Part shown: positions 132 to 22,300 of the stretch, one piece after another
Layout: each line of letters begins with the position of its first letter
Position numbering within the stretch: position 1 is the first letter of the stretch
Sequence record: PZ402300.1
From: a phage
Strand: one strand, 5' to 3'
Length of the DNA: 64,000 nucleotides
Made by a program: the position numbers and the translations under genes
The notes under the pieces: generated by a model
Told to the model about the DNA's origin: nothing
What the model saw: only the letters and a program-made list of their open reading frames with translations
Databases searched by the model: none

Positions 132-376
132 AAAGAAAGGTAGAGTTAGTACCTAACTGGAAAAGATGCTGGAAATGGGCATCCATTCAGATTAGTACAC
201 TTGGTTTAATTATGTTTTCTGCCATAGATATCATACAGCCAATGATGACAGGATTACCTCGTCACATCCTGGAAGATATCCCCCATGGTTCCAATATTGC
301 AATTGCACTGTTTGCCTTAAATATTGTAGGCAGATTAATACGTTTCCGACCAAAGGAAGATTCACATGAAAGCTAA
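116..376 (+). CDS. Small membrane protein with two predicted TM segments; holin/pinholin or antiholin candidate
   Basis: Track ORF 50..376; in-frame ATG at 116 preceded by GGAG at 103-106; hydrophobic stretches ASIQISTLGLIMFSAIDII and SNIAIALFALNIVGRLI; overlaps endolysin start. Confidence 0.45.
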   Translation: MVRRLKRKVELVPNWKRCWKWASIQISTLGLIMFSAIDIIQPMMTGLPRHILEDIPHGSNIAIALFALNIVGRLIRFRPKEDSHES

Positions 377-1001
377 ACAGAAACTTGCTGCGAAAGGTGG
401 TGCAGTGGGAGGAGTTGTCGCTGCTATCCTGGGGGCAGTGTTTTATATGGAAGGGGGTTATGTAAACAATCCTCGTGACCCAGGTGGGGAAACTAATCAT
501 GGTATTACTCAATCAGTTGCTAAGACTCATAAAGAAGTACTAGCTACTGAATACGGTTGGGATGGTTCTATGAAAGGTTTATCTAAAGAGATGGCTGCTG
601 AGATATACATTGATGACTACGTACTTAAGCCTAACTTCGTAGCCTTTGCTGATATATCTCCTGCTGTAACACACAAGCTGGTAGATGCTGGTGTTAACAC
701 TGGTGTAACCCGTCCTGCTAAGTGGTTGCAGTTATCTCTTAATGAGATGTCCCGTAATGGCAAAGACTACCCTAAAATACAGGTTGATGGTAAAGTCGGT
801 ACAAGTACTGTTAATGCATATAAAGCATTACAGAAAAAACGAGGCAAAGTTGCAGCATGTCAGGTAATGATTAAGTTACTTGATGCCAAACAACTGAACC
901 ACTACACCTCATTAAACATGCCAGACTTTACGTATGGTTGGGTAGCTAACCGAATAGGCAATGTGCCACTGGAGGCATGTAATGAAGATGCTAATCACTA
1001 A
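366..1001 (+). CDS. Endolysin, GH108-type N-acetylmuramidase with C-terminal peptidoglycan-binding domain; N-terminal Gly/Ala-rich hydrophobic segment suggests a SAR endolysin (N4 gp61-like)
   Basis: Motif MEGGYVNNPRDPGGETNHGIT typical of GH108 lysins; N-terminus KGGAVGGVVAAILGAVFY is SAR-like; position next to spanins. Confidence 0.75.
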   Translation: MKAKQKLAAKGGAVGGVVAAILGAVFYMEGGYVNNPRDPGGETNHGITQSVAKTHKEVLATEYGWDGSMKGLSKEMAAEIYIDDYVLKPNFVAFADISPAVTHKLVDAGVNTGVTRPAKWLQLSLNEMSRNGKDYPKIQVDGKVGTSTVNAYKALQKKRGKVAACQVMIKLLDAKQLNHYTSLNMPDFTYGWVANRIGNVPLEACNEDANH

Positions 1002-5375: not shown

Positions 5376-6578
5376 ATGTTAAACTATAACGCTCCAATTG
5401 ACGGTCAGAAATCTAGCATTGATGGTGCTGGTTCCGACCAGATGAATACCTATTACTGGCTGAAGAAGGCTATTATTCAGTCCCGTAAAGACCAGTATTT
5501 CATGCCTCTGGCTAACACCGTTAACATGCCGAAGAACTACGGTAAGACTGTTAAGGTGTATGAATACGTTCCTCTGCTCGATGACAAGAACATTAACGAC
5601 CAGGGTATTGATGCTAATGGTGCTACCATTGTTAATGGTAACCTGTACGGTTCTTCCAAAGACGTTGGTAACATCACTTCTAAACTGCCCCTGCTGTCAG
5701 AAAATGGTGGCCGTGTTAACCGTGTAGGCTTTACTCGTATTGCTCGTGAAGGCTCTATTCATAAGTTCGGTTTCTTCTACGAATTTACCCAAGAGTCCCT
5801 GGACTTTGATTCTGATGACCAACTGAAAGAACACCTGTCTCGTGAACTGATGAACGGTGCTGTACAGTTGACTGAGGCAGTTCTCCAGAAAGACCTGCTG
5901 GCTGCTGCTGGTACTGTACTGTATGCAGGTGCTGCTGTTTCTGATGCTACCATCACTGGTGAAGGTGATACCCCGTCTGTAGTTTCTTATAAGAACCTGA
6001 TGCGTCTTGACCAGATTCTTACTGAGAACCGTACTCCGACCCAGACTACTATCATCACTGGTTCTAAGCTGACAGATACCAAAGTACTTGGTGGTACTCG
6101 TGTAATGTACGTTGGTTCTGAACTGGTTCCAGAACTGAAAGCGATGAAAGACCTGTTCGGTAACAAAGCATTCATCGAAGTTCAGCACTATGCTGATGCT
6201 GGTACTCTGATGAACGGTGAAATCGGTTGTATTGATAAGTTCCGTATTATCCAGGTTCCTGAGATGCTTCACTGGGCAGGTGCTGGTAAAAAGGTTGGCA
6301 CTAACCCAGGCTACCGTTCCTCTATGGTTAGTGGTGAAGAGCACTACGACGTATTCCCGATGCTGGTAGTTGGTGACGACTCCTTCTCTACCATTGGCTT
6401 CCAGACTGATGGTAAGTCTGTTAAGTTCACCATCATGACTAAGATGCCTGGTAAAGAAACTGCTGACCGTAATGACCCGTATGGTGAAACTGGATTCAGT
6501 TCTATCAAGTGGTACTATGGTATTCTGGTTAAACGCCCAGAACGTCTGGCTCTGATTAAGACTGTTGCTCCTCTGTAA
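5376..6578 (+). CDS. Major capsid protein (N4 gp56-like)
   Basis: 400 aa; position after portal/scaffold-like genes; followed by GC-rich hairpin; codon usage consistent with high expression. Confidence 0.75.
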
Positions 6579-6595
6579 TAGTCATAAATAAAACA

Positions 6596-6615
6596 AGGGG
6601 GACGTATGTCCCCCT
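6596..6615 (+). terminator. GC-rich hairpin downstream of the capsid gene (attenuator or 3' stabiliser; weak U tract on + strand)
   Basis: AGGGGGAC-GTAT-GTCCCCCT stem-loop 18 nt after the MCP stop. Confidence 0.4.
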
Positions 6616-6645
6616 CTTAATAAAACTAAATGAACCACAGGAAAT

Positions 6646-7284
6646 ATGAACATGAGCATTAACGATAAACCGACCACTGACGTAGAAGTAAACGTACAGG
6701 GCAACGAAGATACCGTTAACGATATTGCAATGCCTAGCGAACTTGAAGTTCTTAAGCAACGTGCAACGTTGATGAATATCAAGTTCTCTAACAACATTTC
6801 CGTTGAGAAGCTTCGCGAGAAGATTGAAGCTGCACAAGTAAAAGATGAACCAGTAGTAGAAGCTGCTGTTAACCCATTGGGTGCTAATCAGGAATCTGGT
6901 GTTAAGAAGATGACCCTGGGTCAGAAGATTCGTGCAGAACAAACTCGACTGATTCGTGTACGTATCCAAAACCTTGACCCTAAAAAGAAAGACCTGCCAG
7001 GTGAGATTATCACCGTAGCTAACGAATATATGGGTACTGTACGTAAGTTTGTTCCGTTTGGTGAAGTAACCGACAATGGTTATCATATTCCGTACTGTAT
7101 CTACGAGTTCCTTAAAGAGCGTAAGTTCATCAACATTACGACTCGTAAAGGTAAGAATGGTTTACCGGATATCCGTGCAACCGAAGCACGTGAGTTCTCC
7201 ATTGAAGTACTGCCTCCGTTGACCGAAGCTGAATTAGCTCAGCTGGCTCAAGCACAGATTGCTGCTGGTAGCCTTAACGATTAA
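6646..7284 (+). CDS. Hypothetical structural protein (N4 gp55 position)
   Basis: 212 aa ORF between two hairpin terminators; synteny. Confidence 0.45.
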   Translation: MNMSINDKPTTDVEVNVQGNEDTVNDIAMPSELEVLKQRATLMNIKFSNNISVEKLREKIEAAQVKDEPVVEAAVNPLGANQESGVKKMTLGQKIRAEQTRLIRVRIQNLDPKKKDLPGEIITVANEYMGTVRKFVPFGEVTDNGYHIPYCIYEFLKERKFINITTRKGKNGLPDIRATEAREFSIEVLPPLTEAELAQLAQAQIAAGSLND

Positions 7285-8198: not shown

Positions 8199-10856
8199 AT
8201 GGGCTTATTCAGTGGGAAGACCAAAGTATACGTAGCATCCTCTGTCTATAACATGGCAGGGGATATACATAAACGTCCTAACTATATGAAGACCGTAGTT
8301 ATTGGGAACATCATTTCCAATACAGGATTCACTATGGCAGATACTATCTCTGATAGTTATCTGAATGGGCCTGGTATACGTATGCGACTGTTCTCCAGCT
8401 GGAGTAAGAACCACTATGATTCAGAAGTTGGTATGGCTGGTTCTTCATTGGGTGTACTAGCTAAGATTGACCCTACTGTAATAGAGGGTCAAATTACACC
8501 ACCTGCTGGAGAGTCTGTCTATGTTCAGGCAGCAGAGATTGGCTTTGCTGACTTTGAACAATGGTGTGACCAGTATCTTTATGAGAATGCCCCAAGTCGA
8601 ATCATGGAACGATTCGATATAGACATTAACGAAGATACCAATGAAATTACTATGACCTCCCTGGATGGAGGTTCTACTATTAAATTCACACCTACTAACT
8701 TTGAACCAGGTGCTTTGTATCTCTATGCTGATTACTCTTTCTATAAGTCTCCTACTACCAATCCACCAGTAGTAGGACCGACTACTGTCTATGATGATGA
8801 GGATGATTTACCATCCACTTTGCTATGGACTACCGTCTCAAGTGATACGACGGCTAATACAACCAATCTTACTAAGACCATACAGACTCATTCTGTTTAC
8901 TCTGATGGTAGACCAGATGAAGATAGTACTGTCACCGAACCAAGTGTGGATAACTGGAATTCCTACGTTAAGGTCTACCGTAGAGGATTCACTGAGAAAC
9001 CTGATGATGTAACTGTAGTTGTATCTGACAGGGTAATGACCCATAAAAAGTTTGGTGAGGTTCAATCCAGTACTACTGTAACTACTAATGTAGTTGATAT
9101 AGGTGGTGGTGTTACTCGTACTGATACAATTACTACAACCACAGAGACACTGGTTCGTAAGTATTCATCCCAGACTACTCGTACCGATACTGAGATGACT
9201 TCTGTTGGTACACCTAAGATGCTTATTTATAAACATAACTCTGGTAATGTTGCACTGGATTCACTGTTTGAGACTGAGGCTACTGACAACCGATTCTACC
9301 CATTCATTCCAATAAGGAATGATAAACGATGGGTAGAGAATGACCCAATCTACCCACACTGTAAGAAAGCTCTTTATAAAGCTACAGGTGGTAAGCTCAA
9401 TGATGTAGTAACTGAGCTTAAGAAGAATAAGGATATAGGAGATATCCAATACATTTATGGCACATTCGGTGTATCTCTTAATTCCCCTGAGGATACTGCT
9501 AAGGAATACATCTATCGTTTCTTTCAGATGGCTACTGAAGCATTCCCACCTGACCCAACCTATCCGACTTTGGAAGCAGTGATTGCAGGTTATCAGGCAG
9601 CAAACGATGCAGTCGATGCATACGTAAAATGGTGGAACAAGCCAGTAGGACAGCTTGCTGGAACACCTCCACCACCACTACCTGATTACCCAGTTATCCC
9701 CAAGAGGGAATTTAGAGTACATAGTAGTAAACACTACAAGTACGATATGACCATTGGTTGGAACTACGTATCAGAAACCACACATTCTGGTAAAGCATGG
9801 TCTGGTGCTAAGCAGGGGCAACTTCGATCCAGATATGCTGGAGATATAACTCTTACTCGCAAGAACATGAGGACAGTTCCTGGCTCCGGTTCTGCTAAGA
9901 AACTGGAGGTAACATACGCATTCTATTCAATGCAAGAGTATGAGTTACTTTGGCAGGATGGTAATAATTCCTACCGTAAACTCAGAATACTGGGTCTAAA
10001 CCACAACAATAGGGTATATAAGAATAAGTCTGTACACATTGATGTTGCCGGGGCAATGGGTGATGCAGAAGAGAGTGGGTTCATTATTCCACTGCACACT
10101 AACATCTACCGATCCATGTCACTGGTTCGTAGTACCCAATTATCCACTGCTTGCTCCTACTTAGTGATGAACTCATATAAGAAGGTTAAGAAGAAATGGT
10201 ATCAGACCGGGGCATTTAAAATTGTTGTTGTTGTGGTTGCTGTGGTTATCTCTGTATTTACAGCTGGTGCTGGTGGTGCAGGCATACTTGGGGCATATGG
10301 TGCAGTTGGTGCATCTCTGGGTTTTGTCGGATTAGCTGCTGTGATAGTTGGTGCTGTAGCAAACGCTATTGCTGGAATGATTCTGGTATCTATTATCACT
10401 GAAGTATCCGCCTCAATGTTCGGGGATAAGTTGGGATTTATTATTGCAGCTATTGCTTCAATGGTAGCTATGAATGTTGGTACTGCTATGTCTACAGGTA
10501 CATCCCTATCTACCCTGGCAAGTGAAATGATGAATGCACAAAACATCATGCAGCTCACCAGTTCAGTAGGTAATGGTATTAGCCAGTATATTAATGCATC
10601 TACGGCTGCTACTATTCAGAAAGCAGAGAAAGTAATGCAGCAGTACAATACTGATATGATGGCAATCAATAAGCAGTATGAAGAAATGTTTGGTACTGCT
10701 GGACAGGGTGTAATTGACCCAATGCAATTCGTGTCAATGGAGTCACTGGATTCATTCTTATCACGTACTCTCATGACTGGTTCAGATATAGCTGACCTGT
10801 CCCTAGATATGATAGGTAACTACTCTGACATGACCCTTAATACTGACCTTGTTTAA
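8199..10856 (+). CDS. Large virion protein with C-terminal cluster of Gly/Ala-rich transmembrane helices (N4 gp53 position); possible ejection or membrane-inserting protein
   Basis: 885 aa; residues ~665-760 form consecutive hydrophobic GA-rich segments (AFKIVVVVVAVVISVFTAGAGGAGILGAYGAVGASLGFVGLAAVIVGAVANAIAGMILVSII…). Confidence 0.5.
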   Translation: MGLFSGKTKVYVASSVYNMAGDIHKRPNYMKTVVIGNIISNTGFTMADTISDSYLNGPGIRMRLFSSWSKNHYDSEVGMAGSSLGVLAKIDPTVIEGQITPPAGESVYVQAAEIGFADFEQWCDQYLYENAPSRIMERFDIDINEDTNEITMTSLDGGSTIKFTPTNFEPGALYLYADYSFYKSPTTNPPVVGPTTVYDDEDDLPSTLLWTTVSSDTTANTTNLTKTIQTHSVYSDGRPDEDSTVTEPSVDNWNSYVKVYRRGFTEKPDDVTVVVSDRVMTHKKFGEVQSSTTVTTNVVDIGGGVTRTDTITTTTETLVRKYSSQTTRTDTEMTSVGTPKMLIYKHNSGNVALDSLFETEATDNRFYPFIPIRNDKRWVENDPIYPHCKKALYKATGGKLNDVVTELKKNKDIGDIQYIYGTFGVSLNSPEDTAKEYIYRFFQMATEAFPPDPTYPTLEAVIAGYQAANDAVDAYVKWWNKPVGQLAGTPPPPLPDYPVIPKREFRVHSSKHYKYDMTIGWNYVSETTHSGKAWSGAKQGQLRSRYAGDITLTRKNMRTVPGSGSAKKLEVTYAFYSMQEYELLWQDGNNSYRKLRILGLNHNNRVYKNKSVHIDVAGAMGDAEESGFIIPLHTNIYRSMSLVRSTQLSTACSYLVMNSYKKVKKKWYQTGAFKIVVVVVAVVISVFTAGAGGAGILGAYGAVGASLGFVGLAAVIVGAVANAIAGMILVSIITEVSASMFGDKLGFIIAAIASMVAMNVGTAMSTGTSLSTLASEMMNAQNIMQLTSSVGNGISQYINASTAATIQKAEKVMQQYNTDMMAINKQYEEMFGTAGQGVIDPMQFVSMESLDSFLSRTLMTGSDIADLSLDMIGNYSDMTLNTDLV

Positions 10857-10869
10857 CAGGAGAATCCCC

Positions 10870-11313
10870 ATGGATTTGTCATTCTTAACAGGCAACCAAA
10901 CCCCACAGCCAGCTGCTATGTCTTGGATGTCTAATAACAATCAAAACTTTAATACCCCGGCTATGAACTATAATCCCGGTGCAGCTATTGGTATGGGTAC
11001 GAATTTTGGAGCATCTGCCCCTAATACTTTCATGTCTGGCTCGGCTAGTCAGTTAGGCATGAACATACCTACCTTCCAATTAGGACTGGGTGCACTTGGT
11101 TCATTAGCTAATATCTACAGTGGTTTCCAGGCTAATAAGTTAGCCAAAGACCAGTTGAACTTTGCTAAGAGTGTTACTAACACTAACCTGAATAATCAGA
11201 TTAAGTCTTATAACACTGCACTGGAAGACCGTGCTCGTAGCCGTGCTGTTGCAGAGAACCGTGACCAATCTACTGCTGATGCTTACATTGCAGCTAATAA
11301 ATTAACCCGTTAA
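10870..11313 (+). CDS. Hypothetical virion protein (N4 gp52 position)
   Basis: Track ORF 10849..11313; in-frame ATG 10870 follows AGGAG at 10857-10861. Confidence 0.4.
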   Translation: MDLSFLTGNQTPQPAAMSWMSNNNQNFNTPAMNYNPGAAIGMGTNFGASAPNTFMSGSASQLGMNIPTFQLGLGALGSLANIYSGFQANKLAKDQLNFAKSVTNTNLNNQIKSYNTALEDRARSRAVAENRDQSTADAYIAANKLTR

Positions 11314-11325
11314 TAGGAAACCATC

Positions 11326-13272
11326 ATGGCTCAAATTACATGGCGTAATGTTGATGCACCCAACTTCTCTGGAGTTGGTGACAGCATTCGCACATTTGGC
11401 AATATGATTGGTAACGCCACCTCCGGCTTAAGTGATGCACTGGGTAATTTCCAGAACGCTGCCAAGCAGGAGGCTGGCAATGCCGTCATGATGAATGCTA
11501 TGCAGTATCAAGACCCTACTGAGTATCGTAATGCTCTGGCATCCGGTGCATTATTTCAGGGGGTTGATCCTTCATTGGTAAGCCAGCGTACTCTACAGAA
11601 TCTGGATGAGCGAGCAGGTACTCTTCTGACTCAACAAGGTCAACAGGGAATCAATGACTACAATGCTTATCGTTTTGGTCGTTTACAGAATACTGACTCT
11701 GCATTAGATAATGCATCTCCAGCTATTCGTTTACTGTCTGAGGCTTATCAGTCTGGTGACCAGAACCGTATTAATGCTGCATTGAGTCAGACTCGTGAGG
11801 CACTGTCTGCACTTCCTGCTGACCAACAACTGGATATGTTGAGTCGTCTGCAAGGTCAGGGTGGTCAGGCCATTAACCAAGCACAGAACCGTTTTGATTT
11901 GGGTGTGGCTCAGCGTAATGATGCTGATTCACAAGCTGCATCCGGTATATTGACAGATATTTTCCGCAGTGCTTCTACGCCTATGGATGCTCTTACACTG
12001 GCAGAATCTGCCATGAAGAATGCTTCTCCTGGTGTACGTGCTGCAATTATGCGAGGTGTGAACCAGAGATTCCCAGGTACTTATGCCACGTCTGCTTCTG
12101 GCTCTGCTCCTGGTACTGCCGGTACTCGTTCTGGTTCTCCTTATGATGTAACCTACACTTTTGCTGCTACTGATAAGCCCATTACCGAGATGACTCTCGG
12201 TGAGGTTACTAATCATCAACAAACTATGATTAATAACCCATCGCAAGGTCATTCTCCTGTAGGTGCATTCCAGATTAATAAAGCCACTCTGGAAGACTAT
12301 GCTCCTAAGGTGCTTGGTTCAGATTGGCGTAATCAGCAAATGACTCCTGAAGTACAGGACAAAATAGCTGAAGCAATCTTCAATGACCGTAAGAGTGGTA
12401 ACCTTTCTAAGACTTGGGCTGCATTGCCTGACCTGGGTGTAGGTGGTTATAAGGATATGCCTTGGAGTGAAGCACGTCAGTTAATTGCACAGGCAGAAGT
12501 AGGTGCATCCCTTGAACAGTTACAGACCCAGCAAGTAGTCTCAAACATGGCAGGCAATACAGTTGCTGCTCGTCAGTCTGAAGATAATACTGGAACCATT
12601 ACTGCTAACTATGCTCGTGCATTACGTGATAACTCTACCATTGGTGAAGTAGCAGACCGTCTTCTTAAGGATGCTTTTAAAGGTTCTGAGAAAGGATGGA
12701 TGATTGCTCGATTGAATGATGTTATGCAGGAATCTGGGCAGTCTCCTGCTGTAGCTGCTGAGATTCTTAAGCAGTCTACTACTAACGTACCGGAAAGAAT
12801 GATTAGTCGGGCACTTGATGCACTTAACCCGTTCATCTCCAATGAAGGTGGTAATGGTATTCGTATTGATGATACCGTTGCCAGAGAACTAGCACGTTCA
12901 GTACGACGTGGGGAAGGTATTGAAGCTACTGCTCGTGATAATGTTCTTACTCAGGTACAGGGTAATATTGCTAATGCCCAGAACCAGGTAAACCAAGCAG
13001 AAGCTTTGCTTGCTGATACCCGTCGTCGTGTAGCTGCTGGACAAAGTGGACTTGCTGCTACTATCCCTGCTCGTGAAGCTGAGTTAGCAAGAGCACGTGC
13101 TGCACTGGATGCTGCTGTTAATACTGTGGTAGCTAACCAGGGAAATCTGGTTCCACAGAACTTCCGTTCTAATGCTTCAGTAGAACGTGAGCGTAGTCGT
13201 GAAGATGAAGAACGAGCTAAACGTTATCGAAAATTGGCAGAGGGTTTACCTCCCTATATGCAACCTCGATAA
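11326..13272 (+). CDS. Virion protein with a lytic-transglycosylase-like motif (N4 gp51 position)
   Basis: 648 aa; segment TEMTLGEV…GHSPVGAFQINKATLEDY resembles the E…G(L/A)(M/F)Q core of lytic transglycosylases. Confidence 0.45.
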   Translation: MAQITWRNVDAPNFSGVGDSIRTFGNMIGNATSGLSDALGNFQNAAKQEAGNAVMMNAMQYQDPTEYRNALASGALFQGVDPSLVSQRTLQNLDERAGTLLTQQGQQGINDYNAYRFGRLQNTDSALDNASPAIRLLSEAYQSGDQNRINAALSQTREALSALPADQQLDMLSRLQGQGGQAINQAQNRFDLGVAQRNDADSQAASGILTDIFRSASTPMDALTLAESAMKNASPGVRAAIMRGVNQRFPGTYATSASGSAPGTAGTRSGSPYDVTYTFAATDKPITEMTLGEVTNHQQTMINNPSQGHSPVGAFQINKATLEDYAPKVLGSDWRNQQMTPEVQDKIAEAIFNDRKSGNLSKTWAALPDLGVGGYKDMPWSEARQLIAQAEVGASLEQLQTQQVVSNMAGNTVAARQSEDNTGTITANYARALRDNSTIGEVADRLLKDAFKGSEKGWMIARLNDVMQESGQSPAVAAEILKQSTTNVPERMISRALDALNPFISNEGGNGIRIDDTVARELARSVRRGEGIEATARDNVLTQVQGNIANAQNQVNQAEALLADTRRRVAAGQSGLAATIPAREAELARARAALDAAVNTVVANQGNLVPQNFRSNASVERERSREDEERAKRYRKLAEGLPPYMQPR

Positions 13273-13314: not shown

Positions 13315-13375
13315 ACATTCACTTACTGTACAGTGAATCTTCTTATACGATATAAGTTTGAACAGGAATCATGCT

Positions 13376-16300
13376 ATGTCAACATTTGACCGTCTGGCAG
13401 GTTTCGCAGACAGCATCACTACTGCTAAGCAAGTCGATGTCTCTACTGCAACCTCTCGGAAACAAGCTGAACAAGGGCAAAGCCCTTTCCAACTAACCCC
13501 ACAGAACGCTTACCAATTACAGGCAGGTCGTGCTGGTGACTTAGGTGCTGGTGCATTTGACCCAGGTTCTATTCAGGCAGATTTTACTAATGCCTCCCCC
13601 CTTGAAATCGTAAACAAATATGGCAATGAGCAGGGAATGGACATTCTCAATGCTCGTGTCAATGCAGCTAATGCTGTTCGTCGTGATTTAACTAAGAGTC
13701 GTACATATGGTGAAGCACTTGGTGATACCCTTTTTGGTGTTGGTCTTGGTGTTGCTAATACCCTTGGGGGCATTGCTGCTCTTGGCACAGGTTTGGTCAA
13801 TGATAATGCCGGGGCATCCATTGCTTCCGGTCTTGACTGGTTAAACAAAGGTGTACACAACCTACAGTCTGATGCACTGAATGCTCGTCGTAATGTAGTA
13901 CAGAACCAGAACGTAATATCTGCACAGGAAAATGAGAAACTCTATAAGCAGGATGTTGCTAAAGGGGAAAGTGAACTCGTTGCTTCTCTGTCTCGCATTG
14001 GTCGTGATGCTTACGATTCCGTTGCTAACACTTTATCCAATGGTATGGCTGCTACAGATGGTCTGGCTGAGGGTGTTGGTTCTCTGTTTACAGGTGGTCC
14101 ATTAATTCGTGGTGTATCTGCACTTGGTAAAGTAATGGTAGGTGGGGATAAAGCTGTTAAGGGTATTACCTTAGCTGCTGAATTAGGTTCACGTCCTGCA
14201 CGTACTGCATTAGCTACTGGTCGTGTTGCTGCACCTGCTATGGCAATTGGTGGTATGGAAGCTGGTGGTGCATACCAACAGACTGCTAATGAAATTATGG
14301 AAATGCCATTCAGTGAACTGGCTGCTAAATCTTCTGTATACCAACAGCATATTAAAGACGGTCTGCCTCCTGAAGAAGCTCGTCGTCAGACTGCATCTGA
14401 AACGGGTATTACTGCTGCTGGTTTAACTGCTCCGATTGCTGCTCTTACTGGCCCATTAGTATCCAAGTTTGAACTTAACCCACTTAAGGTAGGTTCACTG
14501 GCTGGTGCTGGTTCTAATATGCTACGTGAGACTGTAGAAGAAGGTATTCAGTCTGGTACAAGTCAGTTTGCACAGAACAAGGCAATTCAGGGTAATGTAG
14601 ATGCTAATCGTGACCTGCTTAAAGGTGTTGGTGAACAAACCGGGCTTGGTGCATTGTATGGCTTTGGCTCTGCTGGAGTTGCTCAAGCTCCTGGTGCAAC
14701 TGTTAAGGCTGCTGGTGCTGCCGTTGGTCCTGCTGTACGTACTACCCTGGCTGGTGCTTCTCTGGCTGGTAAGGCACTAGCAAAAGTAGCTTCTCCTATT
14801 ACTAACATCCTGGTTCAACGTGGAGAAGAAGTAGCTAAACGTAACGAACAAGCATCCCCTGTATCAGACGCTACAGTTAATGCTGCTGCACAAGAAGCTA
14901 CTGCTCAGGCAGAACAAGCGCAAGCAACTGTACAGGAAGCAGTAGATGCAATGGACATTTCTCCAGAAGAGAAAGCTGCTGCTACCCAATATGCTGCTGA
15001 CTTAACTCAGGTAATGAAGTTTGACCCAGTAGAACTGGAACAAGCTAGTCCTGCAATCCGTGAAGCTGTTTCTGGTTCCACTAACCGTGTTGAAGCTATT
15101 CAGAAGATGGCTGACTTGGTTAATACTGCTGAAGACCCTAATGTTCAAATGGAAGCTGCAATCCAGATGTATGACAACATCATGTCTATGGATAGCTTCA
15201 TTAACCGTGACCCGGGTGCATTAGCTAATCTGGAACAAGGTTCTCCTGCTGCTAATATTGTTGACCAGTTCTCTGGTCTGATGGCTAACGTTCAGAATAC
15301 ACCAAAGGTACTTCGTGCATTCCGTGCTATTCATTCTATGATTCAGGAACAGGCTGAAGCAGGTAAACTGAAAGCTACTGAGGAAGCCAATCAAGCTCAG
15401 GCAAACAATATTGCTATGGCTGCTGATATGTCTCCAGAAGTACTGGATGCAGATTCAGTGAACATGGTTCTGAAACATGCAAGTGAAGGTAAGATTACAC
15501 TGGGGAATCGTCAGCGTGCTGCCCTGCAATCTGCTGCTGCTCTATTGCAAGGAGCACGAGAATTTGACGCTAAAGCAGAAGAACTAGGCTTACGTCCTCA
15601 AGACATTGTTAGTAAACAGATTAAAACCGACGAATCTCGTTCTAATGAAGGCCAGTACTCTGCGTTGCAACATGCTAAACGCATTCGTTCTGCGTACAAC
15701 TCTGGTAACTTCGATTTGGCTTCCGCTTATCTCGACGACTTTATGAAGTTCGCCCAGCACATGCAGAATAAGGTCGGAGCGTTGAATGAGCATCTGATTT
15801 CTGGGAATGCGGATAAAAATAAGTCTGTTCATTATCAGGCTCTTACTCCCTCGCGTGAATGGGTACGTAGTCGTACTGGCCTCGGTGTCAATCCGTATGA
15901 TACCAAGTCGGTTAAGTTTGCCCAGCAAGTAGGACTGGAGGCCAAGACCGTAGCTGATATTGCTAACGCACTTGCTACGGCTTACCCGGAGCTTAATGTT
16001 TCTCATGTGAAAGTTACCCCATTGGATTCACGTCTGGACAAACCTGCTGCCCAGGTAGTTAAAGAGTTCCGTCAGGGCAATCTTGATGCTGCTCAATCCC
16101 AACAGACCAATGAACCAGTGAATCAGGTTGATGAAACTCCTGTTACGAAACAGGAACCAGTTACCCCTACTGTACAGACTAAACCCTCTGTTAGTGAAGC
16201 TGTTAAAACAGAATCCACTATTAAAGAGTCTAAACCACAGTCTGTAAAAGAACCTGAGAACCAGTCTGAAAAACAGGATGTTACCCTCACTAATGAGGAT

Positions 16301-19300
16301 ACCACTCAGGAAGTGGCTGAAACTAAAACAGAAATGGAAACAGTGTTCCCTGTCTATAACAATGAAAAGACACCGAACCAGTTCATTAAAGCATTTTCTC
16401 TACCAGAAGAACCTAAGTCTCGTACCATTGGTTCTGAGTCTCCTCTGACCGATGTTAAGAAAGCACTGTCTTCTGCTGCTCGTTTCGAAGCATTCACTCA
16501 AAAAGAAAATAACGCCCTCACAAGTGATGTGATTAAGCGTTATCAGGACTTATTTGATTTTGGTGAAATTCTGAAGACTACCCTGTCTGACCGTCTGGCT
16601 AAGTTCCTTGCTAATAAGAATGTTGGTAAACGTTTTGCAGAAGGTACTGAGGCTAACCGTTGGGTAGGTGGTAAGTTACTTAACATCGTAGAAAAAGATG
16701 GTGACACCTTTAAGTTCAATGACCAGTTGTTAGAGACTGCTGTACTTGCTGGTCTGCAATGGCGATTAACTGCTACACAGAATGCTGCTGTTAAAGACAT
16801 GAAAGACGTAGCTGCTATTACTGGTGTAGAAGCATCTCTGCTACCAGAAGGCATTTTGGCTGATTTCGAAAATGCTCAGACATTGGTTGAAGCTACTAAC
16901 TCACTGGCTCAAAAGATTGAATCTTATTGGGGACTTAACCGTAATGCTGATGCACCACTTGGTTATACCAAGGGTATCCCAGTGGCAATGGCTACAGAGA
17001 TTCTATCTTCTTTTATTGAGATGGGTGTAGTTAAAGAGTCTATGCTGGATGTGTCTGAGATTGACCCAGAATCTAAAAAGACTGTTGGTCTGTATACCAT
17101 TGATAAGTTAGAGGATAATGATGCCATTAATAATTTCCCTACTGCTATTGAGGAAGCTGTCCTTGTAGAACCAGCAGAGAAACTGTACCTAGGTGATGAT
17201 ATTCCTTCCGTGGCTCCTACTCAGTTACGTAACCCTGCTGTCCGTAATACTCCAGAACAGAAAGCTGCTCTTAAAGCAGAACAGGCTACTGAGTTCTTTG
17301 TACATACTCCAATGGTTCAGTTCTATGAGGCGTTAGGTAAAGACCGTATCCTCGAACTGATGGGTGCAGGTACTCTGGATAAAGATTTACTTAATAAGAA
17401 CCATGCTAAATCTTTGGAAGGCAAGAATCGTTCAGTAGAGGATTCTTATAACCAATTGTTCTCTGTTATTGAACAGGTAAGAGCACAGAGTGAAGACATT
17501 TCCACTGTGCCTATTCACTATGCATACAATATGACTCGTGTTGGTCGTATGCAGATGTTAGGTAAATATACCCCCCAATCAGCTAAGCTGGTTCGTGAGG
17601 CTATTTTACCTACCAAAGCTACTCTGGATTTATCGAACCAGAACAACGAAGATTTCTCTGGCTTCCAGCTTGGACTGGCTCAGGCATTAGGTATCAAAGT
17701 TCATAAAATGACTCGTGAAACTATGTCAGAGGAACTTACCAAAGCTCTGGAAGGTAAGCTGAAACCTGCTGTAGATATGATGGTTGAGTTTGATAAGTCT
17801 GGATACTTACCTACTGATGCAGTGGATATCTTAAGAACATCTCTGGGTAATGATAAATCCTTTGTGGCTCTCATGGCTCTTATGGAATATGCCCGTTACC
17901 TTAACAGTGATGACCGTGCCAACTTTAATACTCCTTTGTACGTTGAAGCCGATGGGGTAACCAACGGACCAATCAACGCAATGGTATTAATGACTGGTGG
18001 TAAGTTCACTCCAAACTGGATTAAGAATACTGCCAAAGGTGGTTTGTTCTTTGGTAAAGCTGGTAAGACTATGAATGAGCATCATACGCAGGATGACAGT
18101 GTTGACCTGTATGAAGCATCTACAAATAGTCTGCAATTCTATCTGAATGAATTACGTAATACTTACAGTAAAAATATTCCAGTTATAAACCAGATGGACC
18201 ATCTCCAGAAGTTAATGAACTTGTTCATTAAAGACTTCAATCTTAAGGAAGACGGTACTCTGGACCTGAAGCGTGGTATCGCTAAAAACCCACTTACCAT
18301 TACCATCTATGGTTCTGGTGCTCGTGGTATTGCAGGCAAGATGGTAAGTGCAATTACTGATACCATCTATGAACGCTTAAGCGACGTTCTGAAAGCCCGT
18401 GCTGTTGACCCTAACATTCCCCCAGCTATGGCGATGTTTGGTAAGGAGGCTGCGTCTGAGGCTGATGCTCAGGCTATGCTGGATACCTTCCTTACTTCTA
18501 TGAAAGCGTTGACTGGGAATATTCCAGCTAAGCGTAAAGGTAAGTTATTCATTAAGGAAGTAGACGGTGTTCTGACTGGTAAGTTAGACCCCCAGGAGTT
18601 TACTGTATCTGGTAATGCTCTTAAGAACTTACAAGAGAATATGCTGCATTTCTTTGTTGAGCCAATGAGGCAAAGTATCCGGTTCACTGTTGGTGAGGGG
18701 TTGATGCACTCTACTGAGAATTTGCAGAAAGCTACCCAGATTCAATCTCTGGTATTGCAGGATATGTTCCAACAAGCAGTACAGGCTAAGCTGGCAGAAA
18801 AAGAAAAAGACCCAACATGGAAGAAGGGTGATTTCTTAACGCAGAAAGAATTGAATGAAATCCAGAATAGCTTAGCTCCACTGGCTCCAATGATTAAGAC
18901 TGGTTCCCAGACTTTCTACATTGCTGGAAGTGAGAATACTGACGTTGCTAACCAAGTATTGGCTACCAACTTAGATGACCGTATGCGTGTGCCAATGAGT
19001 ATCTATGCTCCTTCGCAGGCAGGTGTTGCAGGTATTCCCTTTATGACCATCGGTACTGGTGATGGCATGATGATGCAGACCCTTTCTACTATGAAAGGTG
19101 CTCCGAAGAATACCCTGAAAATCTTTGATGGTATGAACATTGGTATCAATGACATTACTGATGCAAGTCGTAAAGCTAATGAGGCTGTATATACTTCCTG
19201 GCAGGGTAATCCTATTAAGAATGTATATGAGTCTTTCTCTAAGTTTGTTAAGAATGTTGATTTAAATAAGCTGTCCGATTCAGCAATAGATGCTATTGCA

Positions 19301-22300
19301 AAGTCTGCTTTAGACTTTGAGCAACGTGCTCATATTGCCAGGGTAGATGGTGATAGAGATTATAAAATTTCTATGATTAGAGATTCTGGTATTGCATTAA
19401 TTGAGCGTAACCTACGTAACATTGCTTTGGGTGTAGATATTCGTCACAAGGTAATGGACCAGGTACAGGTCACTGTTGACCAGATGGCTGCTGTTGGTGC
19501 TCCTTATGTGAACAACGGTAAAATCTCTCTGGAAGGTCTGACTATAGACCAGCAAGTAGCCAAGCTGAACGAACTGTTTGATGCTGAATTAAACAAGCGT
19601 CGTGATGCAGTACGTGCTGCTAAAGCGGAACCAACGAAGGCAGAACCAGTGAAGGAAGTGCCGGTGAAAGTTGTACCAGCTATGGAGAAGGTAGGTCGTG
19701 TACTGAAGTCTGGTGTACGCCTGTTGTCTAATGCTGCTATTACTAAGCTGGCTAAAGAGATGTCTCCTGAACAGCAAGCAGTATTGAAAGAAATACAGAA
19801 ATCTCTTGCTGCTAAAGACTACAAGGTTGTTTACGGTACACCTTCTCAACTGGATGCCTACGCTATTGAGAAGAACATTACTCGCCCAGCACCAGAAGAT
19901 ATTGAAGCTGCTGAAGCAGGTAATGCATATGGCTGGACTAACTTTGAAGATAAGACCATCTACTTAGTTACCCCTTCCTTAGAGACTTTGGTTCATGAAT
20001 TAGTACATGCTTCTACTTTTGAATCTGTACTGGCTCACTACGAAGGCACCCCTAATGAAGCTGTCCAGAACATTGAAGACCTGATGAACCAGTTCCGTGC
20101 TTTGGATGTTAAGGATGAATCCCCGGTAGTACGTGAAGCATATGCCGATGCACTGAATACCATTAATGGTCATTTGTCTAATGGCTTTATTGAACCAGCA
20201 ATGGCTAAAGCTGCTGCACTGAATGAGTACATGGCTTGGGGTTTAACCAACCGTGAACTTATTAGTAAGCAGAAGAAAACCACTGCACTTAAGACTATGG
20301 TTCAGGCTGTATATGAAGCAATCAAACGTTTGGTATTCGGACGTAAGAAAGCTCCAGCTAATGCAGATGATATGTTCTCGGGCTTATTGTTTAACTCTGC
20401 TGTAGTTATGCGTGGGCAGGCTCCTACTGCTGCTGTAGCCAAAGACACTACCCTGTTCCATAACAAAGCATATGGTGACAATACTCGTCTGGAAGAGTTA
20501 GGGAAAACCTTCGATAAGTTGATTACTGACTACATTGGTTCAGAACCAGTACAGCAAGTAATTCGTAAAGGTAAGTTTTCCGATGCAGTAGTGAATGCAA
20601 CTAAAGTAACTCGTGATGTTCAGGCTCATGGCTTCACCATGAATATGCAGGAACAGCGTCTCTTTACTAACATTGTTGCTGCTCTCGCTACCGAGGCTGC
20701 TATTAACCCTGCTGCTCTGGCTCGTGCACAGGAATACTACACGCATGTTACTAAGAATCTGACTGTTGAAGCATTTATGTCTGACCCTGATAGTACTAAC
20801 CCTGCTGACCGTTACTATGCACAGCAGAAGTTCGATACCATCATGGGTGCTAACAACATTGAGTTTGATGCACAAGGTCGTTCTTCCTTACTGCCTACCT
20901 TTGTTGGTCTGGCAATGGTAAGCGAAGAGGTACGTAAGGTACTGGCTTATATTCCTGTTATGAAAGCAGATAAGAAATCAGGCAATACCGTTGATGCAAT
21001 GCTGACTAATATCGGTACTGCTGCAATGGCTAGTTTGAATGCTCGTGTAGCAGGCGATACTAAAGCCACTAACGTACAAGAAGGTATGGATGCACTGGCT
21101 CAGACAATCATGCAGACCAGCCTTAATGCAGAGTCCTTCTATGATTCCGTTGCTACTCCTACCGGTAATGCTATTGACCGTGCTAACCAGTATCTGGTGG
21201 ATTCTATTGATGTACTGTCTACCCGTGCTTTAGAAGGTGCTCGTGAAGTTGCAGCTAATACCAAGAACCCATTGGTTAAAGGTGCTGCTCATGCTGCACA
21301 ACTGGTAGCTGCTATTGCTACAGAGAAGAATGGTTCAATCGTAGCTGAGGGTGTTATGGCTGCAATGAACCAAGGTAAAGTATGGCAACCTTTCCATGAC
21401 CTGGTTAATGACATAATCGGTCGTACTAAGAGCAATGCTTCTGTATACGATTTGATTAAAGCAGTACGTGCACAGGTACAAGCTGACCGTCAACAGTTCC
21501 GTGAACACCTACCTACCACTATCGCATCCAAATTCAGCCGTAAGCTGACTAATGATGAGTGGAAAGCAATGCATACCGGTATGGGTAAAACTGACTTAGC
21601 TGTTCTGCGTGACACTATGTCTCTGGCTGAAATCCGTGACCTACTGACTGACCAAAAGATTGTTGACCGTGAGGTTAATAAACTGGAAGCAGATTTGCAG
21701 AAACAAGCAGGACGTAACTGGCCTCTGATTAATCGTAAATCTAAGCAACTGGCTCAGTACATGATTAATGGTACAGTCGGTAATAACCTGCTGCGTAATG
21801 CTACTGCAATTTCACGTTTGCTGGGTGAACGTAAGACTACACGTTCTGTTGTAGATGTAGCTCAGCTGGATAAACTGATTACTTTATATGCACTGGAAGC
21901 AATGAATAAGACTGACCGTGAGATGTTATCTTCACTGGCTCAGACAGAAATTGAAGGTATGGACTTTGCTACATCTTACCTGGTTGGCCAGCGTAAAGAT
22001 GAAATGGCTAAAGTCAAGTCTGATAGTCGTGCAACTCTGAACCAGTACAAAGGGTATATTCCTGGTGAGACTAAACAGGGTGTTAACCTGATTGTTGCTG
22101 AAGATAGTCAGTTTGTTGATTTGATTGAGAAATCCTATGTACGTCTGGGGACTTATCAAGGTAGCTCTGCTAATCGTGGTCCAGCACGTAGTTACTACTT
22201 TGCACCAGTACAGGCACAGGCTCCATTCTCACAGGGTATCCTACAGAACGTTCGCAATACTGCTGGTGGTGTAGACCTCGGCACAGGCTTTACGATGGGA

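Follow-up and report, generated by a model that had tools for sequence, protein, structure and literature searches.

A lambda-lysozyme-like module lacking the catalytic helix in the gp51-type tunnel protein of an N4-like coliphage

The window, a stretch of 64,000 nucleotides of phage DNA (sequence record PZ402300.1), carries a gene for a 648-residue protein that is, judging from sequence homology, the ortholog of gp51, the ejected periplasmic-tunnel protein of coliphage N4. The middle of this protein is occupied by a module of 128 residues, which profile comparisons identify as a relative of the lambda-type lysozymes (lytic transglycosylase family 4, GH104, COG4678), unrelated to the soluble lytic transglycosylases (SLT, GH23), and in which helix alpha1 and its catalytic glutamate are missing. 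The module very probably engages peptidoglycan, whether it cuts the polymer or only binds it. It could well be lytic, with an invariant glutamate on its last helix, E391, acting as a non-canonical general acid, and this is the reading that we tentatively favour. The protein can be divided as follows.

11326..13272, plus strand: gene for the gp51-type ejected periplasmic-tunnel protein, 648 residues (open reading frame, PDB 11mn, PHROG 6126)
11326..12090, plus strand: N-terminal helical part, residues 1-255; residues 52-255 of the N4 counterpart form the decameric tunnel (11mn alignment, PMC13434306)
12091..12120, plus strand: linker SASGSAPGTA, residues 256-265, at the place of the canonical helix alpha1 and catalytic glutamate (hhalign, MAFFT, column statistics)
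12121..12504, plus strand: alpha1-less lambda-lysozyme-like module, residues 266-393 (AlphaFold2, hhalign, profile search)
12505..13272, plus strand: C-terminal part, residues 394-648, a low-confidence linker followed by helices (full-length model)

A profile of the module aligned with a profile of ten lambda-type domains at an hhalign probability of 98.3% (E 2.2e-14), over 105 columns corresponding to residues 29-146 of lambda R. These ten canonical members comprise endolysins, a gp16-like protein and hub or tail lysozymes, and their alignment is the source of the motif definitions used below. Comparison with the gp5-type tail lysozyme of phage phiM12, annotated as ‘baseplate hub subunit and tail lysozyme’ and as COG4678 (lambda-type muramidase), also gave 98.3% (E 1.2e-14), and comparison with the N-terminus of the gp16-like internal protein D of Bordetella phage BB8 gave 97.8% (E 1.3e-12). 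Both proteins are themselves linked to lambda R: that of phiM12 matched it in BLASTP at 2e-8, with the catalytic ‘SEGTD’ included, and tblastn searches with the BB8 domain retrieved R of lambda and HK97 (4e-21), P2-type gpK (~5e-16) and, directly, N4-like gp51 (5e-4). A reciprocal scan with canonical domains reached the gp51 PHROG at 7e-10 and 5e-6. Chance is far from sufficient to account for this likeness to lysozymes. The relatives of lambda R are named ‘glycoside hydrolase family 104’ or ‘lysozyme’ in their source records. The hhalign probability was 4% when a shallow profile of nine sequences was set against lambda R alone; significance required deeper profiles and bridging sequences.

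The residues on which the argument turns are given in the following lines, in which conservation refers to columns counted over 151 diverse representatives clustered at 50% identity.

12142..12147, plus strand: Y273-D274, equivalent to lambda Y33-D34 in ‘GY33-D34-VIVGG’ (alignments; D in 113 and N in 26 of 151)
12187..12189, plus strand: E288, the glutamate of ‘TEM’, not conserved (column statistics)
12262..12273, plus strand: G313-A-F-Q316, equivalent to lambda G65-R-Y-Q68 (G in 151/151, Q in 150/151; invariant in the canonical set)
12355..12360, plus strand: Q344-D345, equivalent to lambda Q91-D92 in ‘FSPxSQD’ (Q in 151/151; Q91 and D92 canonically invariant)
12415..12429, plus strand: W364-A-A-L-P368, equivalent to lambda W124-A-S-L-P in ‘WASLPGAGYGQ’ (W in 150/151)
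12496..12498, plus strand: E391, where the last helix reaches its C-terminal end, a residue that may be catalytic in a non-canonical way or may bind a ligand (conservation)

The residues invariant in all ten canonical members are L12, D13, E19, Y33, G65, Y67, Q68, Q91, D92, W124 and S126. The family motifs that follow motif I are present in the module, as S310..G313-A-F-Q316, T340-P-E-V-Q344-D345, W364-A-A-L-P368..G373-x-Y375 and Y273-D274, with G313, Q316, T321, Q344 and W364 invariant or nearly so. In lambda lysozyme, L70, N122 and A125, which lie beside these motifs, report on sugar subsites B to D, with A125 reporting on subsite D (PMC6916166). The motifs kept after motif I correspond to sugar-contacting parts of the lambda enzyme.

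The original prediction had described a virion protein with a possible SLT motif, particle-associated and degrading peptidoglycan during genome ejection. Homology bore out the virion protein (PDB 11mn, E 2e-116; PHROG 6126) and defined it more exactly as a gp51-type ejection protein, and the homology to N4, in which gp51 is ejected with the genome, agrees with a particle-associated protein acting in ejection. The segment singled out, TEMTLGEV...KVLG (residues 287-331, nucleotides 12184-12318), lies inside the module, and its likeness to an SLT core held in part: the module is of the lysozyme or lytic transglycosylase type and its G-A-F-Q is homologous to the transglycosylase motif, but the family is lambda-type, not SLT. 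An SLT-type enzyme (family 1, GH23), with its catalytic glutamate in ‘TEM’ or ‘GEV’ about 25 residues before G-A-F-Q, is highly improbable. The spacing of these glutamates before G-x-x-Q is superficially like that of E-S...G-L-M-Q, but neither the protein nor the isolated segment had a Pfam SLT match at E<=1 or at E<=10, and every significant link leads to the lambda-type family. Among the SLT motifs, E-S and A-Y-N-x-G are absent and only G-x-x-Q is present. The first candidate for the catalytic glutamate, E288, falls in a column of Q (46), S (43), T (19) and E (18), with Q in N4. The second, E293, falls in a column of E (87), D (37), Q (18) and G (5), which is non-acidic in 27 of the 151; the helix in which it lies, ‘M-T-I-G-E/Q-V’, is specific to the subfamily and occurs in phiM12 as well, where the position is Q and the enzyme has a catalytic glutamate of its own. 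With respect to family assignment and residue conservation in these alignments, the SLT version is refuted. The lack of an SLT-like hit would be a false negative if taken as a verdict on wall enzymes in general: Pfam and NCBIfam yielded nothing relevant for the protein or the isolated segment, and this null result carries no information, as neither database has a model even for lambda R. The predicted peptidoglycan-degrading activity is not established by these comparisons, and the module may cut by means of a non-canonical residue or only bind.

Attention is drawn instead to E391, which is conserved in 151/151 and 138/138 sequences and is the sole invariant acidic residue in or near the module. 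It shares a conserved, inward-facing side of the last helix with W380, M383, R384 and I387, and the next two positions are x-Gly. Two relatives (P0264 and P0266) keep it although they end 5-8 residues later, so its conservation is not merely a matter of connecting the module to what follows. In Glu19-bearing enzymes, various residues (E, T, K, K, L, Y) occupy the position aligned with it near the end of the helix.

The AlphaFold2 model of the module, built with 32 diverse sequences, is compact, with four main helices, a predicted local distance difference test score (pLDDT) of 89.9 and a predicted template modelling score (pTM) of 0.84. The full-length AlphaFold model is of low confidence (pLDDT 60) and was used for segmentation only; in it, helices span residues 18-248, and pLDDT falls below 50 at residues 254-282 and 389-426, bracketing the module. 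Gly, Ala, Ser and Pro abound in the linkers on both sides of the module throughout the family (151 relatives). In sequence constraint, the module ranks second among the parts of the protein, 47% of its columns being invariant among orthologs, as against 37% in the tunnel part and 17-31% in the C-terminal parts. A HMMER search with a profile of residues 258-400 recovered 726 cluster representatives at E<=1e-3, most of them proteins of 550-800 residues with the module at about residues 250-420. A search for homologous proteins with the segment itself (130 residues) found none, being limited by the word index, and homolog listings obtained with the full protein or with the lambda-type alignment contained close relatives only. 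When the module model (pLDDT 90) was compared with predicted viral structures by Foldseek, gp51 orthologs came first; the predicted viral relatives matched at template modelling (TM) scores of 0.5-0.6. After the orthologs (E ~5e-4 or weaker), the nearest structural relatives were proteins of cell-wall context: T4-gp5/VgrG-type baseplate hubs (phiM12 and Atu_ph07), proteins in which the domain is fused to an M15B or M23 peptidase, one protein that has a peptidoglycan-binding-like domain, and another annotated as ‘SAR endolysin transglycosylase’.

The orthology to N4 gp51 places the module within a known apparatus. Residues 1-358 of the window protein match PDB 11mn, the N4 ‘66 kDa protein’ gp51, at E 2e-116, the whole protein (residues 1-648) matches PHROG 6126 ‘virion structural protein’ with 1015 bits, and the full-length search returned 316 homologs, all of about 650 residues. 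Its N-terminus, MAQITWRNVDAP, is identical to that of N4 gp51; identity in the aligned part is ~57% by manual count, and the two proteins share their length class and the gene order gp53-gp52-gp51-virion RNA polymerase (vRNAP). N4 gp51 contains the module too, with the alpha1-replacing linker and the terminal ‘IAQAE’. The N4 protein leaves the virion together with the genome and builds a periplasmic tunnel (Bellis et al., Nat Commun 2026, PMC13434306), described as a T7 gp15-like helical tunnel. In N4, gp52 forms the outer-membrane complex, and the hydrophobic C-terminal residues of gp51 have been proposed to form the inner-membrane channel (PMC13434306). Recombinant N4 gp51 (residues 1-359) formed a decameric channel ordered only at residues 52-255 (PMC13434306); the disorder beyond residue 255 can be attributed to the construct, which stops in the middle of the module. 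By orthology, the window protein would likewise be present in the virion, be ejected, form a decameric channel and insert into the membrane.

On this basis, the following sequence of events can be proposed. After adsorption, the gp51-type protein would be expelled through the tail and would assemble a tunnel that crosses the periplasm, from the outer-membrane complex of gp52 to the inner membrane. The module, carried on flexible linkers between the tunnel-forming N-terminal helices and the C-terminal part, would be present in about ten copies per tunnel, at the height of the murein, where it could grip glycan strands; this engagement would allow the tunnel to pass through the sacculus and to be held there. 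If E391 has taken over the role of general acid from the lost Glu19, the module would still be lytic. The invariance of E391, and its retention even where it is nearly the last residue, are among the reasons for which the lytic reading is favoured. The comparisons made here show the orthology to N4 gp51, the lambda-type homology, which motifs are kept and which are lost, the invariance of E391 and the occurrence of the truncated module in further proteins of genome delivery; we infer the position at the wall, the binding of peptidoglycan and, above all, catalysis.

Several observations weigh against such a lytic module, and the first is the loss of motif I itself. Glu19 is the essential catalytic residue of lambda lysozyme (PMC6916166, PMC4656821), and motif I (‘FLDMLAWSEGT’), the helix that ends in Glu19, is invariant in all ten canonical members. 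The alignment with lambda begins at residue 29, and helix alpha1 and Glu19 have no counterpart in the module. The column that hhalign places opposite the catalytic glutamate of phiM12 (A265) is A (50), G (22) or P (20), without a single Glu in the 151, and in the alternative register (P262) Glu occurs in five. A linker replaces alpha1 in all 151 relatives. Some relatives start with Met right at the YD motif, and N4 gp51 has the same pattern as the window protein, alpha1 region included. We know of no lysozyme-superfamily enzyme with its general acid on a C-terminal helix. In a Foldseek comparison with the PDB, the module model had a best E of 1.3 and TM scores of at most 0.30, lambda lysozyme not being listed; the absence of a significant match implies that the fold has drifted, such that E391 cannot be placed relative to the cleft. 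The entries that did appear, leech destabilase and EtgA, were at noise level and were set aside. The module profile had no match in the tunnel protein gp72 of phage DEV (PDB 8VXQ), and the module is thus not universal among schitoviruses. No report of muralytic activity in N4 virions was found.

A displaced motif I was sought elsewhere in the protein. The upstream helix ‘MD221ALTLAE227’ was rejected, its motif not being conserved in 140 relatives and its position lying inside the resolved tunnel part of N4 gp51, and so was the downstream ‘LDALNPFISNE507GGNG’, the column of which is mostly gap or Asn. A third possibility, that the last helix is a relocated alpha1, was prompted by the likeness of gp51 ‘LIAQAEVG’ to the catalytic helix ‘LIAQGEVS’ of Ab31. 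In an ungapped profile scan, the register pairing E391 with E19 ranked second and fell within the shuffle null (p ~0.36), which also counts against a lytic module, and hhalign aligned this helix opposite lambda alpha6. In terms of sequence, a relocated alpha1 has no statistical support and is put forward as a hypothesis only.

The same facts may be read as those of a pseudo-enzyme, a dead relic of lambda lysozyme that binds glycan and serves to fix or place the tunnel within the murein, or to wedge it through pores already there, with cutting left to host enzymes or not needed at all, and with E391 as a ligand-binding or fold-stabilising residue. This is possible, and only a little less probable than the lytic reading. 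The loss of alpha1 and Glu19 in 151/151 while the other motifs stay is a classic signature of conversion from enzyme to binder, and DEV-type relatives do without the module. The N4 ejection proteins are said to appear devoid of wall-degrading activity, hydrolysis being ‘presumably provided in trans’ (PMC13434306). On the other hand, E391 is strictly invariant and is kept even at the extreme C-terminus of some proteins; the loss of a whole core helix is more drastic than inactivation needs; and, in the tectivirus-like contigs described below, an anchored stand-alone module takes the place of an entry transglycosylase. The transglycosylase activity of T7 gp16, according to Moak and Molineux in 2000, is reportedly dispensable under optimal conditions, its importance showing at 20 °C and in stationary-phase cells; the dispensability is counted for the pseudo-enzyme.

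It is unlikely that the module has a role unconnected with peptidoglycan, such as organising DNA or neighbouring ejection proteins in the capsid or docking the RNA polymerase after ejection. Such a role would be in keeping with the 12 copies of gp51 found inside the N4 virion before ejection, which are thought to be associated with vRNAP (PMC13434306), and with the PhiM1 ejectosome, which also bears lysozyme-like domains, the grooves of which have been proposed to guide spooled DNA (PMC11440229). The conserved residues, however, are those common to active wall enzymes and outline no new surface, and the other proteins in which the module turns up, namely baseplate hubs, peptidase fusions and a tectivirus entry-type protein, have the cell wall as their common context.

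A lambda-type module that engages the wall can be compared with several known systems. The lambda R endolysin (PDB 1AM7, 3D3D) has GYD, G-R-Y-Q, FSPxSQD and WASLPG..Y in common with it, with homology over residues 29-146. Lambda R is, however, a free lysis enzyme of 158 residues with alpha1 and Glu19, whereas the module has neither and is embedded in an ejected structural protein; its alpha5 region is also shorter, and an additional ‘M-T-I-G-E-V’ helix is present. The nearest canonical relatives in sequence are the T4 gp5-type hubs of phiM12 (gp111) and Atu_ph07 (98.3%; Foldseek E 4.5e-4). The phiM12 hub shares the subfamily helix ‘M-T-V-G-Q-V-x-x-L-Q’ with the module, but it belongs to a myovirus cell-puncturing device, in which the domain is C-terminal, has the catalytic helix MLDYIGQKEGTD and has no equivalent of E391. 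The T7-like gp16 of BB8 likewise carries a muralytic-type module in an ejected internal protein of a podophage, but there the domain is N-terminal, in a protein of the inner-membrane complex, and keeps the canonical helix ‘FLDFLGKAEG’, whereas the window module lies in the middle of a tunnel protein. The domain of T7 gp16 itself is SLT-type.

In Autographivirales, lysozyme or transglycosylase domains have three known locations: the N-terminal end of gp16-like proteins, the C-terminal end of gp15-like tunnel proteins, and a central place in the tunnel protein near residue 300. They are predicted to lie at the height of the wall (bioRxiv 10.64898/2026.05.18.726046). In the tunnel proteins of this order (Ar-KM gp42; Dunnvirinae, central at about residue 300), the same kind of lysozyme-type bead is predicted to point outward, and the central location near residue 300 agrees with that in the window protein. 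The Ar-KM domain belongs to another virus order and is described as T4-lysozyme-like and of the active type, whereas the window module is lambda-type and lacks the catalytic helix, the two having been compared by description. The module fits the known theme of lysozyme-type domains on ejection proteins.

The module also occurs outside gp51-type proteins. In P0175, a protein of 261 residues with no Pfam match, it starts at Met1, without alpha1, and is followed by a C-terminal hydrophobic segment. The gene, at 6001-6786 of ENA ERZ27315043 k141_394783 and also found in JGI 3300000052, is separately translated, its own ATG overlapping the upstream stop codon, and the contigs are PRD1-like, with a P3 capsid gene, a PRD1_DD gene and an M15 peptidase gene two genes downstream. 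PRD1 P7 is a 27-kDa membrane-associated transglycosylase for DNA entry (PMC5380687). P0175 resembles P7 in size and membrane anchor but carries the gp51-type module, and it looks like a P7 counterpart that makes use of another domain. The domain of PRD1 P7 is SLT-type. A match between the module and the tape-measure-protein PHROG 6090 (E 1.2e-4, positions 1501-1565 of 1853) suggests that some tape measure proteins of siphophages contain the same lambda-type module too. P0264 (852 residues) and P0266 (848 residues) have no Pfam matches and carry the module at their extreme C-terminus. In P0233 (872 residues), the module (residues ~414-569) is accompanied by a C-terminal staphylococcal-nuclease domain (PF00565, E 2e-20), a composition that gives this ejection-type protein both a wall module and a nuclease.

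In the record of phage SP5M (MT682708, 697-2661), the gp51 ortholog is named ‘lysozyme containing protein’, the sole prior hint of the relationship, and the other ortholog records listed give ‘structural protein’, ‘66 kDa protein’ or ‘hypothetical’, the annotation being inconsistent. The resemblance had thus already been noticed by at least one annotator; no published analysis of it was found, nor, in the literature, an N4 virion zymogram or a description of gp51 as lysozyme-like.

The DNA of the window comes from an N4-like coliphage that belongs to the group G7C/ECBP1/St11Ph5 (Gamaleyavirus, Schitoviridae), and the gene region shows 92-94% nucleotide identity to ECBP1/St11Ph5-type Gamaleyavirus phages. 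The open reading frame at 11326-13272 is genuine; it starts with ATG, and a ribosome-binding site, AGGAA, lies 8 nucleotides upstream. The genes around it, together with the endolysin gene, are listed here.

366-1001, plus strand: GH108 + PG_binding_3 protein, 211 residues, N4 gp61-type lysis endolysin (Pfam)
8199-10856, plus strand: gp53-like protein, 885 residues (open reading frame, N4 gene order)
10849..11313, plus strand: gp52-type ejection protein, 154 residues, upstream neighbour (PHROG 2646, synteny with N4)
13358..23797, plus strand: virion RNA polymerase, 3,479 residues, downstream neighbour (Pfam PF21894, PF21867, PF21769, PF21624)

The order gp53-gp52-gp51-vRNAP (gp50) is that of the N4 record. 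Pfam detected no lysozyme or wall-hydrolase domain in the vRNAP and gp53-like proteins, and no recognisable wall hydrolase was found among the other virion genes of the window. The gp53-like protein has no Pfam match and contains a long hydrophobic C-terminal stretch rich in Gly, Ala, Val and Ile (residues ~650-760, by eye); the gp52-like open reading frame starts with TTG and overlaps the end of that of the gp53-like protein by 8 nucleotides. The endolysin gene opens the late block and is followed by an overlapping open reading frame of 175 residues (961-1488) without a Pfam match. Between the end of the vRNAP gene (23797) and 27665, the region 23800-27600 holds no listed open reading frame of at least 150 residues on either strand, and the direction of transcription and the GC skew both flip within it; this is probably an early or small-gene region.

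How N4-like phages pass a megadalton ejectosome and a polymerase of 3,500 residues through the murein is an acknowledged gap. The module derived from lambda lysozyme sits in the part of gp51 that was invisible in the 2026 study of N4, and its presence contradicts the recent statement that the N4 ejection proteins lack such a domain. Since motif I was looked for and found to be missing, the module should be classed as an alpha1-less offshoot of family 4 and not as one of its bona fide transglycosylases. The module family merits a profile of its own in the domain databases, since annotation pipelines now label such proteins only as ‘virion structural protein’. It is tempting to propose, tentatively, that the alpha1-less module represents an unrecognised and widespread muralytic family for genome delivery (at least 726 clusters at 50% identity, absent from Pfam and NCBIfam), in which the general acid has moved to E391 on the C-terminal helix. 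If this is true, its minimal architecture would suit proteins that have to thread a narrow tail channel and refold in the periplasm, and it would supply the ‘missing’ wall cutting of N4-like phages and of some PRD1-like tectiviruses. An active module would represent a new catalytic arrangement of the lysozyme fold and a compact scaffold for virion-associated lysins; an inactive one would provide a clear case of the conversion of an enzyme into a wall anchor within a DNA-delivery machine.

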